Assembly: GCA_051294905.1 (NCBI GenBank)
Contig: CM119371.1
Coordinates: 38,628,001 to 38,692,000, forward strand
Length of the DNA stretch: 64,000 bases
Direction of reading: 5' to 3'
From: Botryllus schlosseri
Lineage: Eukaryota
The position numbers and the translations under genes were made by a program. Under the pieces are notes generated by a model, which made no database searches, was not told where the DNA came from, and saw only the letters and a program-made list of their open reading frames with translations. Of this stretch, positions 18,065-29,605 are shown piece by piece. Every line of letters starts with the position of its first letter. Position 1 is the first letter of the stretch.

Positions 18065-18448
18065 TCCCCGGAATAGTAATCAATCCGAAACATTATGATA
18101 AATAGATAATGTTGAAGAAACATAAAAATATCATCAATGGTGTATGTATTATGAAACTGGAAATATTGTATTTGCGGTAGACCGCAATTAGTTTCCAATT
18201 CGTAATTTCAACCGCATTGGTAGTTTTTTTCATAAAAATAAATCAACAAATACTTTGATGCTAGTTTCAAAATGACGTAAATCTCTTAATGAATTTTCCT
18301 TGAATAGTAATTAATCCGAAACATTATCATGCAAGGTCTGGGAAACATAAAAATATCATTAATGTGGTATGTATTGTGAAACAGGCAATATTTTCTTTGC
18401 GGTTACCAGAGAATATGTTCTAATTCGTAATTTCAACCCCATCATCAG
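18065..18448 (+). repeat. Diverged ~230-bp tandem duplication; the second unit is split by the LTR element and continues at 22554 into the Bcl-2 upstream region
   Basis: gaatagtaat(c/t)aatccgaaacattat at 18071 and 18302; aattcgtaatttcaacc in both units. Confidence 0.75.
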
Positions 18449-18659
18449 TGTGGTGAATTCTTGTGCGCGATTGTCTCGTCCTTTATATTTAGTTAAACCA
18501 ATTATTACTTGATTACCTGCCTTTTCCTCTATATATTGTCTCGCTCCTAATTTGTCATTTCTTGGTACCTTATAGTTGCTGGCCTAGCTGTGTTGCGTAT
18601 AGTGCTCGTTTTCAGTTAATAAAAGCCTTGGTTACTCTGTGAAATAAAGGTCATCACAA

Positions 18660-18675
18660 TTTTATTAACTGAAAA
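18660..18675 (+). promoter_or_regulatory. Non-tRNA primer-binding site complementary to the LTR (putative self-priming site)
   Basis: TTTTATTAACTGAAAA is the exact reverse complement of LTR 18609-18624 (TTTTCAGTTAATAAAA); there is no TGG start. Confidence 0.8.
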
Positions 18676-18683
18676 GATCTACT

Positions 18684-21600
18684 ATGGCGTCGAACCAGAC
18701 GCTCATTCGCGTTCCCGTGTTAAAGGCTATGCCGAGGGATGATGATGCTGGTCAGGAGTTCAAGCACTGGATGCGCATTATAAAGGCGTATCTCACGTCC
18801 GTCGATGCTGCTAGAAGAGATGGTGACCCAGAGATCGATAGTTTCAGTATAATGGCAGGGTACTTGTCGGCTGAATCTTTTTCGCTGGTTGAGGAAGAAT
18901 CGACCTTTACGGATGCGATGAAACTTCTAGAGGGCTTGTACGTGAAAAAGAAGAATCTTGTCTATGCGCGCCATGAATTAGCCACAAGGAATCAGCAGCC
19001 ATCGGAGACCATATCTGAGTACGTTCAGAGTCTCCATGCTCTGGCTAAGCAATGCGAATTCAAGGACATTTCGGCAGCACAGTACAAGGAGGAGTCCGTG
19101 ATGAATGCAATGATCACCGGATTGCGCTCTTCAAGTATACGACAAAGGTTGCTAGAGTATGAGGACCTCACACTGCAGAAGGCCATCCAAGTTGCTGATA
19201 CTCTTGAAAAAGCACAGAAGTTCTCTGAAAACTACCAGCAGCCGTTGGCATCGGTCGCCAAGGTATCTGTATGTGCGGATAGCGCTAATGACTACGCACT
19301 CGATACCAAACCAGATCCGTCTGCCATTGCTGCTTCAACCTCGAAGACTCGTAAATACCAGAAGAAATGCTGTTATTGTGGCACTCGTCATGTTTTTCGC
19401 AAGAGTCTCTGTCCCGCGAAGGATGCTGAATGCTTTGGATGTGGGAAGATCGGGCATTTCAAGAAATACTGCGATTCGCTTTATGCCGACGAACCTATCA
19501 AGGATTCGGACCGCCGACGTGTGGCATCGCTTCTGGCTGGGATTCCGAGCTCGTTAAAAGGTGCAATTATTACGATTGGTTTGGAAGGCAATGACTTGGA
19601 TGCGCTATTGGATTCGGGGGCCGCCGAGAACTACATAGATTATCAGGTGGCGTTGCGGCTGAAGTTGTCGATTACACCATGCGATGTCACCGTTGGGCTG
19701 GCATCAAAAGATGCAGTAACCAAAATGCGTGGCTCCGTAGTGGTGTCCATAAACATTTCCGGAAGCGTCTACCGTAACGTTCATTTTGGTGTCGTTTCTA
19801 ATCTATGCGCCGATGTTATCTTGGGACACGAGTTTCTAGAACAGCATAAAGAGGTGATATTTAAATTTAATGGACCTCGTGATACACTTTATGTCGGACA
19901 GTGCAACCTTGCCGCTGCTAAAACCTACGAGATTCCGAGACTGTTTCGATTTCTTGATCCGGATAGCAAACCCATAGCAACAAAATCGAGGTATTATTCC
20001 CGCCAGGATAAATCTTTCATCAATTCCGAGATTGAGAGAATGTTGGGGGAAGGGATAATAGAAAGGTCTTCCTCGCCCTGGAGGGCGCAAGTTGTCGTAA
20101 CCAAAGGCGACAGACATAAAAAACGTATGGTTATTGACTATTCACAAACGATAAACCGTTATACGTATCTGGACGCATATCCTCTGCCGAAAATTGACGA
20201 GGTCGTCAACGAGATAGCGAAAGGTAGCGTTTATAGCTCTGTTGATTTAAAGTCTGCCTACCATCAGATTCCCTTGTCGGATGACGACAAGCCGCCAACA
20301 GCGTTTGAGGCGAATGGGCGGCTGTATCAGTTTCGTAGAGTTCCATTTGGTGTGACTAATGGTGTTTCAGCTTTCCAGCGTTTCATTGACACGTTCATCG
20401 ATCGCAATAAGCTGGAAGGTACGGTGGCATATCTTGATGACATCACGATCATTGGGCGGTCACAGGAGGAACACGATAGACGTCTGAAGGCCTTCATGGA
20501 AGCTGCAAAATTGAGTAATTTAACACTGAACCTAGAGAAATCCGTTTTTTCAGTGAAAAAGCTCAGACTTCTCGGCCACTGCGTATCCCACGGTGATATC
20601 AGACCCGATCCTGAAAATCTGCGACCGCTCATGGAAATGAAACCACCTGGAAATGCTGCAGAAATGAAGCGATGCATTGGTATGTTTGCGTATTACTCTA
20701 AATGGATCGTCAATTTTTCAGAAAAGTTGAAACCTCTAACAGAAAATAGAGGGTATCGACTGGGGCAGGAGGCGTCGAACGCTTTTCGGAAGCTCAAAAA
20801 TGGTTTGCTGGAAGCCAGTCTTGGATACATATGTGATGATTCTCCGTTTGTTGTGGAGTGCGACGCATCAAACTCTGCTGTCGCTGCTGTTTTGAGCCAG
20901 AAAGGTAGGCCGGTCGCGTTCGCGTCTAGAACGCTCAATAAGACGGAACAGAACTATCCGGCCGTTGAGAAGGAAGCTGCCGCTATCATAGAAGGTTTAC
21001 GCAGATGGGGATATCTGCTTCACGGTAAAAGGTTCAAGTTGGTTACCGACCAAAAGGCTTTGTCCTTCATTTTCAAGAAATGTCATAAGAGTAAAATTAA
21101 AAACACAAAGCTTCTACTGTGGAAACTTGAACTTAGTGCATTCGATTATGAAATTGAACATCGTCCTGGAATACAGAATTTTGCTGCTGATGCTATATCA
21201 AGGATATTTTCTGTCCATTCTATTTCAGCATTGCGGGAGGCACATGTTAATTTAGGACACCCGGGAGTTCGGAGGCTTATGCATTTCGTCAGGGCTAAAA
21301 ATTTGCCCTTTTCGATTGATGACGTTAAAGCCGAATGCCGATCGTGCATGGAGTGTGCCAGAATCAAGCCTCGTTATTTTCGGCCGGCGGAGGAGTGCTT
21401 GTTGATTAAAGCTACGAAACCAATGGAGCGACTGAGTGTGGATTTCAAAGGCCCGGTTGCTGGCAGAAATAAGTATCTTTTGATAATCATTGACGAGTTC
21501 AGTCGTTTTCCGTTTGCCTACCCGTGTAGGGATATGTCTTCGAGAACAGTAATCAATCGATTGTCTCAGTTGTTCTCACTTGTCGGCGCTCCTAACTATA

Positions 21601-22289
21601 TCCATAGTGACCGGGGGATGTCGTTTCTTTCCACAGAGGTGAAGACCTTCCTTGCGAAAAGGGGGATTGCGAGCAGTCATTCAACGCCTTATCACCCGAC
21701 GGGAAACTCTCAGTGCGAAAGAGTGAACCAAACGATATGGAGAACTGTCAAGCTTCAGCTGGCCTCTCAGAATATGCGCGAAGATGACTGGGAAATGGTA
21801 CTTCCCGATGCTCTTCATTCTGTGCGTTCATTGCTGTGCACTGCAACTAATGTTACTCCGCACGAAAGGTTTTTCGCATTCCCTCGTAAGTCTACGTTCG
21901 GGCAATCTTTACCAGATTGGTTGCTTCAAAGTGATACTGTTCTGCTACGCAAGCACGTCAGAAGCAAGGATGAACCCTTGTGTGAGCCCGTGGATTTGTT
22001 GGATGCAAATTCGAAGTATGCCTCTGTCCGTTATCGCAATGGTACGGAATGGAGAGTTTCGGTGAAAGATTTAGCGCCCTATCCGAAGAACCGAGATGAC
22101 ATCGAGTCAAGAGCCGCTGCGGAACATATTGAACTTGACGACGCCGATCCTTGTGATCAGCGTAACTCACCTACTGCTCCAGAAGTCGCATTGGACCAAG
22201 ACAGCCCGCAGACGGCTGAAGATAATGATAGTCCGCCTTTACGCCGGTCTACCAGAAACCGTAAAGCCCCCGATCGTTTTCGATATTGA
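18684..22289 (+). CDS. Gag-Pol polyprotein, 1201 aa (Gag with two zinc knuckles, aspartic protease, RT, RNase H, integrase)
   Basis: Knuckles CCYCGTRH...C and CFGCGKIGHFKKYC; protease LLDSGA; RT VDLKSAYHQ, PFGV, YLDD; RNase H ECDAS; integrase H-x4-H...C-x2-C, SVDF, SDRG, ERVN. Gypsy domain order PR-RT-RH-IN. Confidence 0.98.
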   Translation: MASNQTLIRVPVLKAMPRDDDAGQEFKHWMRIIKAYLTSVDAARRDGDPEIDSFSIMAGYLSAESFSLVEEESTFTDAMKLLEGLYVKKKNLVYARHELATRNQQPSETISEYVQSLHALAKQCEFKDISAAQYKEESVMNAMITGLRSSSIRQRLLEYEDLTLQKAIQVADTLEKAQKFSENYQQPLASVAKVSVCADSANDYALDTKPDPSAIAASTSKTRKYQKKCCYCGTRHVFRKSLCPAKDAECFGCGKIGHFKKYCDSLYADEPIKDSDRRRVASLLAGIPSSLKGAIITIGLEGNDLDALLDSGAAENYIDYQVALRLKLSITPCDVTVGLASKDAVTKMRGSVVVSINISGSVYRNVHFGVVSNLCADVILGHEFLEQHKEVIFKFNGPRDTLYVGQCNLAAAKTYEIPRLFRFLDPDSKPIATKSRYYSRQDKSFINSEIERMLGEGIIERSSSPWRAQVVVTKGDRHKKRMVIDYSQTINRYTYLDAYPLPKIDEVVNEIAKGSVYSSVDLKSAYHQIPLSDDDKPPTAFEANGRLYQFRRVPFGVTNGVSAFQRFIDTFIDRNKLEGTVAYLDDITIIGRSQEEHDRRLKAFMEAAKLSNLTLNLEKSVFSVKKLRLLGHCVSHGDIRPDPENLRPLMEMKPPGNAAEMKRCIGMFAYYSKWIVNFSEKLKPLTENRGYRLGQEASNAFRKLKNGLLEASLGYICDDSPFVVECDASNSAVAAVLSQKGRPVAFASRTLNKTEQNYPAVEKEAAAIIEGLRRWGYLLHGKRFKLVTDQKALSFIFKKCHKSKIKNTKLLLWKLELSAFDYEIEHRPGIQNFAADAISRIFSVHSISALREAHVNLGHPGVRRLMHFVRAKNLPFSIDDVKAECRSCMECARIKPRYFRPAEECLLIKATKPMERLSVDFKGPVAGRNKYLLIIIDEFSRFPFAYPCRDMSSRTVINRLSQLFSLVGAPNYIHSDRGMSFLSTEVKTFLAKRGIASSHSTPYHPTGNSQCERVNQTIWRTVKLQLASQNMREDDWEMVLPDALHSVRSLLCTATNVTPHERFFAFPRKSTFGQSLPDWLLQSDTVLLRKHVRSKDEPLCEPVDLLDANSKYASVRYRNGTEWRVSVKDLAPYPKNRDDIESRAAAEHIELDDADPCDQRNSPTAPEVALDQDSPQTAEDNDSPPLRRSTRNRKAPDRFRY

Positions 22290-22657
22290 GCCAATTGCCA
22301 ATTCCCTGTACGTATTGTACGATTTCCTTTCGGACGGGGAGATTGTGGTGAATTCTTGTGCGCGATTGTCTCGTCCTTTATATTTAGTTAAACCAATTAT
22401 TACTTGATTACCTGCCTTTTCCTCTATATATTGTCTCGCTCCTAATTTGTCATTTCTTGGTACCTTATAGTTGCTGGCCTAGCTGTGTTGCGTATAGTGC
22501 TCGTTTTCAGTTAATAAAAGCCTTGGTTACTCTGTGAAATTAAGGTCATCACAATCAGTGTCTCATAATAATGAATTAGCAAATCCTTGGATCCTAATTT
22601 CAAAGTAGCTTAGCTTAGATATCTGAATGAGCTCTGACTTGCTGTTATCTTCAAACC

Positions 22658-23538
22658 ATGGAATTATTACGAGTATCACCATCGGTCACTGAAGAAAAGG
22701 ATGATATTATATCCGGGCATATTCCTTGGCTCGGAATTTTATCATGTACGAACTAGACGGTCCAAGCGTTACAGCAAATACGAATGCGGAGACAACCTTA
22801 CGGCGAGTTGGTGATGAAATGTTTGAGCGACATCGAACTGTCGTAAACGCAATCTCTAAATGTCTCCGATACAGTATTGTTGAAGTCGATGAAAAATATG
22901 AAGAATATTCTGCGGATGAGCGGATGTTTCTGATGATAGCTGATGAAATTTTTAAAGATACCCAAGAAAATTGGGGTCGGATTGTATCTGTGTTTGTGCT
23001 GGGTAGCATTCTTGCTCGCGAAAACGAGGAAGAGCATCACGGTGATAATATAGAAGGTATCATACAGTCAGTCGGGAATTACATCGGTAGAAGAAGACGA
23101 AAGTGGATAGGGGAAAATGGAGGATGGGTAAGCGATTTTGCACGCCCTGATAAGGATTTGGTAATTATCGTTTAGCTTGAGGTACTGTGTATCTGCTCTC
23201 GAGAGCCCATACCATCTATCGATAATGAAACTTAGCTTGCACTTCACCATTCGGTTTTCAATTCACATTTTGTCATAAGGCACAGAAATTTACAGACTAA
23301 GCGCTCCGATCTTTGAATTACCTAGCAAGTACGGTGACTTTCCTCTGCAAGATTAGGAACCCTTACATTTTTTTCTTTGTTTCAGGACAGATTTGTAGGA
23401 TTTTTTGATAACGCAGCTTTCGATGATAGCAAAGTTTGGAAGAGGCTCATGTTTGCCGGAATTGGACTGACATCTATTGCAATGGCAATAACAAGATCAT
23501 GGATACTCCTTTGCCATACATCATGTAATATTTTTTAA
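22658..23538 (+). CDS. Bcl-2 family protein, Mcl-1-like (exon 1 22658-23127, exon 2 23386-23538); frameshift at about 22708-22712, so either a pseudogene or initiated at ATG 22744
   Basis: BH3 TLRRVGDE; BH1 NWGRIVSVFVLG; BH2 WIGENGGW|DRFVGFF with a GT-AG intron (23128-23385) at the usual BH2 position; hydrophobic tail VWKRLMFAGIGLTSIAMAIT. ATG 22658 (accATGg) is out of frame with the BH domains, and removing 2 nt from the ATAT run restores DDIIRAYSLARNF. Confidence 0.9.
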
Positions 23539-24100
23539 ATAATATATTTCTTCGCCGTTTCATTACATCAATTTTCACTGTAGGACGGATGCAGTTTCTT
23601 CTGAGATTACATGAAAGATTGATCCATAAAACCGTCTTTATTTGGAACATTTCTATTCTTCAAATTTATCCAGCTACGTAAGGGAATTGTTAGGTTACCT
23701 AGAAAACGCCGCAGGTCATATTTGACCCAATTCCGACCATAGTTGCGACAGGGAGTTATGACATCTCAAAATTATCCATCTTTCTATGCCAAATATCGTT
23801 GATTCTCCACGACCAAATATCGTGTTCTATAAATATTGTGTATATGGAACAGATATAAATGTTGCTATTTTGTTGTTATTTACGAAGAATACTTTGCTCA
23901 GTAATTAATTTCACGGGAATTCTAAACTTCAATACATACAAGTGAGCCAAGTTACATTTACCTGGGTTAACCTGTAGTGTTATGTGATTACCTACAATTT
24001 TACCAAGACGTAGCGAACACAATAAGTAATATGAAGTGAAGGAATAAGGGGGCCAAATCCCAATGTATAGATGCATATTTATGCGGAAATATCGTCTTAC

Positions 24101-29067: not shown

Positions 29068-29605
29068 AGCAAATCCTAGGATCCTCATTTTCAAAGTAGC
29101 TTAGATCTCAAAATAAGCCGGGATTTACAAATTATCTTTAGCATGAGATATATAGTGTATCTGCTCTCTAGAGTCCATATCACCTCTCGATGATAAAATT
29201 CAGCTTTACCATCTAATTCGGTTCCCAATTTATATTCTACGACACGATAACTTTCCTCCGTATGATCATTAAGGCTTCTATCTTTATTGCAGGACGGCTT
29301 TGTAGAATTCTTTGATAATACCGCTTTATACTACAATAAAGTATGGAAGGGCCTCATGTTTTTCGGAATCGGACTGACATCTATTTCAATAGCATTATCA
29401 AGATAATGGATGTTCGCATGTTTTGTCTCATGTAATATTTTAAGAATATAATTCTTCATCGTTTAATCGCGTTCATTTTTCTGTAGGATGTATACAGTTT
29501 TTCTGAGAATACTCGAAAGATTGCCCCATAAGAAAACCTTCTTTGTACTTTTAATTTGTCAAATTTCTACAGCTACGTAAGGGAATTGTTAGGGTTACCC
29601 AGAAT
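29068..29605 (+). pseudogene. Bcl-2-like paralog lacking exon 1; exon 2 (29293-29406) still open
   Basis: Upstream region and ATG (29143) are joined directly to intron sequence. Exon 2 reads cag|DGFVEFFDNTALYYNKVWKGLMFFGIGLTSISIALSR*. 3' flank is homologous to 23500-23705. Confidence 0.85.

Follow-up and report, generated by a model that had tools for sequence, protein, structure and literature searches.

The 64-kb window (the whole stretch of Botryllus DNA that was analysed) contains a complete Ty3/Gypsy retrotransposon that carries a complement of its own LTR exactly at the priming point and that has no tRNA-type primer-binding site there. The complementarity is conserved with compensatory changes among related families. 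The element and its relatives probably prime reverse transcription with their own RNA in the manner of Tf1, and they would form a self-priming Ty3/Gypsy clade that lacks a chromodomain and includes tunicate, mollusc, insect, and nematode proteins.

The retrotransposon and its putative primer-binding site

The element is a complete LTR retrotransposon of 4105 bp (window positions 18449-22553, forward strand). It is flanked by the target-site duplication ATCAG, which occupies 18444-18448 before the 5' LTR and 22554-22558 after the 3' LTR and which sets the ends of the LTRs. The 5' LTR (18449-18658, 210 nt, TGTGG...TCACA) and the 3' LTR (22344-22553) are direct repeats that are identical at 209 of 210 positions, with the sole mismatch at 18646. 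Two other copies are also flanked by 5-bp duplications (GTATG and CCCTG, as read from the copy alignment). The LTRs enclose a single open gag-pol frame of 1201 amino acids (18684-22289), identified from the open reading frame and the order of Pfam domains. The frame consists of gag (18897-19127), two CCHC-like knuckles (19368-19412, which has odd spacing, and 19431-19472), protease (19572-19844), RT (20103-20579), RNase H (20763-21143), the integrase Zn domain (21228-21374), and the integrase core (21414-21698). The polypurine tract GGACGGGGAGA plus one T (22332-22343) precedes the 3' LTR. All of these features lie on the forward strand.

The element is assigned to Ty3/Gypsy because its pol order is protease, RT, RNase H, and integrase and because its best solved relatives are the Ty3 polyprotein (7q5b, E 7.1e-65) and the Ty3 RT (4ol8, E 8.1e-53). 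The TG...CA ends of the LTRs, the short target duplication, and the polypurine tract before the 3' LTR are also features of Ty3/Gypsy members.

Copies of the family were sought in the 495-Mb assembly that contains the window. Besides that of the window element, the LTR and leader are present in no fewer than 18 5' copies, and 3' or solo copies are numerous, all at 92-100% identity. Eleven same-family RT matches were found at 97-100% identity, and six of these have open frames of at least 1200 amino acids. The family is therefore young, as many of its copies are nearly identical and intact. The intact frame and the 209/210 LTR identity described in the initial annotation are both seen, in a family that is young and multi-copy.

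Other repeats are present on both sides of the insertion. Direct repeats of 101 nt (18117-18217 and 18342-18442, 81% alike and 225 nt apart) lie just upstream, where Tandem Repeats Finder reported no array. A pair of 186-nt direct repeats (23369-23554 and 29276-29461, 74% identity, 5.9 kb apart) lies downstream of the element and may represent the LTRs of an older element.

The putative primer-binding site (18660-18675) is the exact reverse complement of a 16-nt segment of the 5' LTR (18609-18624, TTTTCAGTTAATAAAA), which is referred to here as the arm and is the proposed self-primer. The site begins 1 nt past the end of the 5' LTR, which is the position required of a primer-binding site, and the first site base (18660) pairs with the 3' end of the arm (A18624). 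The single spacer base A (18659) mirrors T22343 between the polypurine tract and the 3' LTR. The arm contains TCAGTT (18612-18617) and AATAAA (18618-18623), and its copy in the 3' LTR occupies 22504-22519.

The 16-mer occurs three times in the 64-kb window, namely in both LTRs on the forward strand and at the post-LTR site on the reverse strand. One hundred dinucleotide shuffles gave a mean of 0.03 matches when one mismatch was allowed, and none gave three matches. As RNA, 18609-18683 has a folding energy of -19.4 kcal/mol (z = -4.14 against 200 shuffles). The minimum-energy fold also predicts a hairpin at 18625-18651 in which GCCUU (18625-18629) pairs with AAGGU (18647-18651), and a second AATAAA (18643-18648) lies inside this hairpin region. 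No TGG-type tRNA site is present in the 25 nt between the 5' LTR and the ATG at 18684, and a tRNA scan of the 64-kb window returned no genes. The perfect 16-nt complement and the initiator-like TCAGTT had been noticed in the initial annotation, and the sequence check agrees with both at every coordinate. Its reading that no TGG-type site follows the 5' LTR is also true of all related families read.

The arms are nearly invariant among the copies of the family. Five changes were seen, four of which are A>G, and three of the A>G changes in arm or site retain a G-U pair, in a within-family sample that is too small for any test. The changes sit in copies L009, L011, L016, L017, and L027. Copies L011 (change in the site) and L027 (change in the 3' LTR arm) are one element, and their changes lie at adjacent positions of the duplex. 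The A>G changes may be a footprint of A-to-I editing of double-stranded RNA or may be plain transitions, and they are too few to tell.

Conservation of the complementarity in related families

Related elements in the same genome were identified by an RT search in which 111 of 1670 candidates were scored. Among the 111 scored, many families have 52-67% RT identity to the element, and many have open frames of 1200-1280 amino acids. All 15 elements with a readable junction, which represent 10 families including that of the window, exhibit complementarity between the post-LTR site and their own LTR. The perfect runs in the 10 families are 16, 16, 12, 12, 15, 16, 15, 16, 13, and 13 nt. Two extra copies in the same genome have one mismatch or change each. 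A spacer of 1 nt separates the site from the LTR end, or of 2 nt in family H. The arm and site are ATTTAAGTTAGTAAAA and TTTTACTAACTTAAAT in family F42, TTTTAGTCAATAAAA and TTTTATTGACTAAAA in family C, TTCTATGTTGCTTAAA and TTTAAGCAACATAGAA in family E, TTAGTTCATTTAA and TTAAATGAACTAA in family F, and AATATTAAAGTAG and CTACTTTAATATT in family H. The arms of distant families are very unlike, as the arms of families E and H illustrate. A G-rich purine tract of the GGGGAGA or GGGGTGA type precedes the 3' LTR in nearly all related families. One candidate, family D, was rejected as a separate family, as it has no LTR pair and is a 5'-truncated copy of family E.

Relatives were also identified in other organisms. 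The protein search returned 1458 homologues at E <= 1e-20. Among the matches listed, the named homologues are from Ciona (called K02A2.6 or zf(cchc)-8), Mytilus, two insects, and Trichuris. The Ciona relatives are named after K02A2.6 of C. elegans and not after Tf2. Metagenome contigs were scanned as well and yielded 66 loci with 37-55% identity. The leader region is present in 32 of them, and 28 of these share the layout of arm and site; the other four (L125, L133, L137, and L143) have no readable junction. The perfect runs in the metagenome loci are 12-18 nt. One mismatch each is found in L089, L105, and L132, and two are found in L135, and the pairing of L094 was read across the contig ends. 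The distance from arm to site is 24-70 nt across families. Loci L107 and L109 belong to the same family, and a G>T change in the arm is matched by a C>A change in the site between them. The complementarity that the initial annotation had read in a single element is strongly kept in its relatives, and compensatory changes accompany it.

In L103, L104, L130, L140, and several other loci, no more than 8-14 nt separate the end of the site from the gag start codon, and the site of L104 overlaps that codon. Where the two are this close, the arm/site helix may have an additional effect on the initiation of translation.

Several metagenome contigs have ends of note. The L094 contig (4046 nt) has its first base just after the arm and its last base at the end of the arm, which is where the proposed cut lies; this single case may reflect where a circular assembly happened to be opened. 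The contigs L086, L090, L091, and L096 (3.9-4.2 kb) each consist of the internal region and a single LTR in circularly permuted order, with terminal overlaps of 184 nt in L086 and 123 nt in L090. This is expected from the assembly of multi-copy elements or of one-LTR circles.

The covariation of arm and site was measured in an alignment of 24 families (A3) that runs from 20 nt before the 3' end of the arm to 20 nt into the site and covers a helix of 20 pairs. Positions are counted backwards from the 3' end of the arm. Family H and locus L090 were excluded, because a site that begins 2 nt past the LTR puts them in a different register and MAFFT had misplaced both in alignment A2; their own complements are 13 and 15 nt. 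The pairs from -12 to -1 are formed in 288 of 288 cells, although complete pairing over the first 11-12 positions is in part by construction because the families were located via the inverted repeat. The pairing of all readable junctions of the clade, its constant location at the priming position, and its extent to -16 are not by construction. Changes on both sides are found at nine of these 12 pairs, and the invariant pairs are G(-10):C and the last two A:U. The outer pairs are formed in 88% (-13), 63% (-14), 79% (-15), 79% (-16), and 58% (-17) of families, and the pairing beyond -17 is at background (29%, 38%, and 42%). The L103/L104 family is paired to -19 with one mismatch.

Over the whole helix, 83.8% of cells are paired, compared with 65.2 +/- 1.6% in shuffles (none of 500 as high) and 31.7-49.8% when the partner is slid by 1-3 columns. 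The cells that changed on both sides number 98, compared with 38.0 +/- 5.0 in shuffles and 25-37 in the slid alignments. The covariation score is 0.526, compared with 0.175 +/- 0.021 in shuffles (none of 500 as high) and 0.086-0.137 in the slid alignments. RNAalifold predicted the same helix unprompted, with 13 pairs of which 10 are compensatory. The arm also carries a poly(A) hexamer in many families, so its conservation is partly of another cause.

The background was measured in 85 related loci (411,165 positions). These yielded 50 12-mers that have their reverse complement 15-133 nt upstream, and at least 27 of the 50 are the post-LTR site itself. A terminal ACA (or TCA) followed by A and the site is found in 23 of the 24 aligned families.

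The predicted folds contain the arm/site helix in all 26 families folded. In about 18 of the 26 families the arm is followed directly by a second predicted helix (RCCU/AGGY). This hairpin is conserved, and A or G at +1 is accompanied by U or C on the other side (ACCU/AGGU, and GCCU with AGGC or AGGU). In these predicted folds the putative cut would fall at the junction of two stacked helices.

Probable priming by the element's own RNA and the alternatives

The best explanation of these findings is priming by the element's own RNA. An LTR segment of 12-16 nt (up to 19 nt) in the 5' part of the transcript (18609-18624 in the window element) would fold back onto 18660-18675. The RNA would be cut at the 3' end of this segment, after A18624 and before GCC. 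The cut and the enzyme that performs it are modelled on Tf1, where the element's RNase H acts, and the same enzyme would presumably act here. Extension of the freed 3'-OH over the spacer A and the LTR end, from 18659 to 18625, would yield a strong-stop DNA about 35 nt long. This DNA would move to the 3' repeat of the RNA, provided that polyadenylation takes place downstream of the arm, and cleavage near the LTR end would be expected from the AATAAA hexamers at 18618-18623 and 18643-18648. The copying of the primer during plus-strand synthesis would rewrite the site in every cycle, which would keep both arms complementary. The 1-nt spacer A and the single T after the polypurine tract would leave each cDNA end with one extra base beyond TG...CA.

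This scheme would place the arm at the 5' end of the RNA. The initial annotation had proposed a start at A18614, which would give an 11-nt primer. The triplet A-G-T/C at -11 to -9 (A in 19 and G in 24 of the 24 families) resembles an initiator, and the primer length would then equal that of Tf1. The covariation beyond -11, which reaches -12 in all 24 families and stays above background to -16, nevertheless argues against this start. The RNA should therefore include the bases out to about -16, and the pairing argues for a start at or upstream of 18609. In the standard scheme of reverse transcription, plus-strand transfer would need a match over the full length of primer and site, so the primer would be about as long as the duplex and the RNA would start at the 5' edge of the arm (18609-18613). 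The spacing of TATA boxes in two families fits such a start. In family A, TATAAAA precedes the first base of the 16-nt arm by 31 nt, and in L091, whose arm is 18 nt long, CATATAAC lies at -48. A TATA scan across the families found no common spacing, and the start is not readable from sequence because most families are TATA-less.

The only canonical TATA and Inr-like pair of the window element consists of TATATAT (18530-18536) and TCATTT with its A at 18557, within 18530-18560. This putative alternative start, recognised by its motifs, precedes the arm by about 50 nt. A primer that began at 18557 would greatly exceed the duplex in length and would complicate plus-strand transfer.

RNA reads on 18420-18800 from four runs are too thin to place a start or an end (13 raw reads in X24, none in X21, and 67 in X22). 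The 13 reads of X24 all run on into unlike sequence. The 67 reads of X22 are mostly from a diverged LTR copy that has a sequence other than the polypurine tract upstream. Three X22 reads have GTG and a run of A after 18658, which may mark a poly(A) site at the LTR end of the diverged copy or may result from internal priming at A's of the genomic sequence, and they are unsafe as evidence. The start of an X4 contig at 18616 was rejected as a transcription start, as it reflects the behaviour of the 31-mer graph at the polymorphic base 18646.

The same pairing could arise in other ways. The helix may be a regulatory or structural stem only (for masking of the poly(A) signal near the cap, packaging, dimerisation, or translation control at the ATG close by) while something else serves as the primer. 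We regard this as unlikely, even if many families have AATAAA, ATTAAA, or a hexamer of that kind at the end of the arm and several have the start codon no more than 8-30 nt from the site. If the arm were paired near the 5' end of the RNA and left free near the 3' end, the 3' poly(A) signal would be used selectively. Against a stem alone, the helix begins at the exact priming position in 23 of the 24 aligned families, families E and F stay paired though their AATAAA lies outside the arm, and the 25 nt between the LTR and the ATG of the window element hold no other candidate primer site. A further reading keeps the self-primer but takes it from the arm copy near the 3' end of the RNA (U3-R), on the same or a second RNA, with a start downstream of the arm. 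The pairing upstream of the Inr-like A(-11) would then be explained in every family even with a start at -11, and the initiator-like G(-10) and A(-11) described above would fit. We hold this to be very unlikely, as it needs a cut in the region of the 3' LTR and would link the cDNA to genome-length RNA, and as the TATA spacing of family A fits a start at the 5' edge of the arm. We know of no precedent for priming by an arm copy near the 3' end of the RNA.

A host RNA could also be the primer, either an internal fragment of a tRNA, as in copia, or another small RNA, in which case the likeness to the LTR would be secondary. The tRNA scan, which gave no genes, covered the 64-kb window. The CCA end of a tRNA requires TGG in the primer-binding site, and no site begins with TGG. 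From family to family the site changes, yet it always fits the LTR of the same element, so that a shared host tRNA is excluded and one host RNA cannot suit all families; the sites also appear too AT-rich for the stems of nuclear tRNAs. We therefore give a host RNA primer only a slight probability. The last alternative is a chance inverted repeat in AT-rich sequence, and both arms are indeed AT-rich. The shuffles, the 12-mer background, and the covariation are all against it, and the repeat is found at the same place in about 28 families. Chance has next to no probability and is excluded by the covariation counts.

Lineage and known self-priming systems

Priming by the element's own RNA is known or predicted in other lineages. 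According to passages of PMC4600332 and PMC5006619, a segment of Tf1 RNA derived from the 5' LTR loops back to the region just past the LTR and serves as the primer once it has been cut. Self-priming is presented in passages of PMC4600332, PMC6317226, and PMC6934838 as proven for Tf1, with proof limited to Tf1-type elements of fission yeast, as assumed for Tf2, Tj1, and the Tf1/sushi group, and as predicted for the Tcn1 clade and the plant copia TAR elements.

The elements Tf1 and Tf2 of Schizosaccharomyces pombe and Tj1 of S. japonicus resemble the Botryllus clade in that they have no tRNA-type site, carry a post-LTR complement of their own LTR or 5' RNA, and need a cut at the end of the duplex for the release of the primer (excerpts of PMC4600332 and PMC5006619). 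Tf1 differs in that its primer has been mapped to the first 11 nt of the mRNA and that cleavage by RNase H has been demonstrated experimentally, whereas the Botryllus clade is known from sequence. The Botryllus clade in turn has a duplex of 12-19 bp, an arm that usually carries a poly(A) hexamer, and only 24-70 nt from arm to site. It also lacks a chromodomain or an SH3 domain of the Tf2-1 type, and its named relatives are all animal among the matches listed.

The Tf1/sushi group of fungi and vertebrates and the Tcn1 clade of mosses are similar to the Botryllus clade in their predicted self-priming from LTR and primer-binding site (excerpts of PMC6317226 and PMC6934838). However, both are chromoviruses, whereas the Botryllus clade has no chromodomain and has relatives that are K02A2.6-like by their source names. 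The plant Ty1/copia TAR lineage (Houba and Osr-1), which is unrelated to Tf1, is predicted to prime by the same logic (passages of PMC6317226). The TAR lineage differs in superfamily (copia), in gene order, and in its plant hosts.

A chromodomain or SH3_Tf2-1 domain was found in 0 of 16 clade members at E <= 1, and PF00385 was found in none of the 120 homologues listed of the 1458. A defining feature of the Tf1/sushi chromoviruses is thus absent from these 16 members. The apparent absence of a chromodomain that the initial annotation had reported holds, and so does the non-chromoviral status of the element. Its placement of the element as Mag-like is unsupported by the sequence features examined, as the tRNA-Leu site TGGTGTCAGAAG, a feature of the Mag lineage, is absent from the window element and from all related families. 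The size of 4.1-4.2 kb, the single frame, and the Ciona relatives presumably recall Cigr-1 of Ciona.

In a tree of 32 rows, the named animal proteins nest among the loci that carry the layout. The tree is not reliably rooted because the Steamer-type copies, its sole outgroup, form a very long branch. We tentatively suggest, as a possibility somewhat short of probable, that an old, metazoan-wide, compact, K02A2.6-like clade without a chromodomain gained self-priming independently of Tf1/sushi and combined an initiator, a poly(A) hexamer, and the primer in a module of about 16 nt at the 5' end of the RNA.

Helices near a primer site are also found in retroviruses, where the U5-IR and U5-leader stems and the HIV-1 poly(A) hairpin flank the primer-binding site and mask a cap-proximal AAUAAA. 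The retroviral helices accompany a tRNA primer, whereas the Botryllus helix itself occupies the primer site.

The literature search found no claim of self-priming in invertebrate, Mag-type, or chromodomain-less Gypsy elements, with key older papers outside the search, and no description of the primer site of this clade in the literature found on Cigr-1 and K02A2.6. The priming logic is known; what would be new is its use in another, animal-wide Gypsy clade, with a primer fused to a poly(A) hexamer and a very short R-U5. If the clade self-primes, the mechanism would be widespread in animals and would have arisen or been kept outside the chromoviruses, which bears on the idea, put forward in passages of PMC3601003, that hairpin priming is ancestral to tRNA priming. 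Such elements would be independent of tRNA and hence blind to host defences aimed at tRNA primer sites, and this is relevant to the host control by tRNA fragments that target primer sites (3' tRNA fragments; excerpts of PMC7472051). Their primer site would be renewed from the LTR in each cycle. Annotation tools would mis-score these elements because the tools demand a tRNA-type site. The clade also offers about 28 natural covariation 'mutants' that are usable for testing.

The Steamer and SURL elements (Mag lineage, C-clade) resemble the Botryllus clade in their small size, single gag-pol frame, short LTRs that end in ACA, and animal hosts, as described in passages of PMC8905726. They differ in that a 12-nt tRNA-Leu site TGGTGTCAGAAG, which the same passages give as a feature of Steamer, C9, and C10, follows the LTR directly and in that their LTRs start with TGTAACA. 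ACA followed by TGGTGTCAGAAG was found 22 times in the Botryllus genome, in other elements, and the reversed control was found 0 times. Other lineages of the same genome therefore use tRNA priming. Two copies with the Steamer-type site, L152 (an internally deleted short derivative with 177-nt LTRs and a 657-amino-acid frame) and L153 (a broken copy), were tried as the outgroup of the tree and proved poor. They form the very long branch, and their identity to the window element in RT/RNase H is 27-30%.
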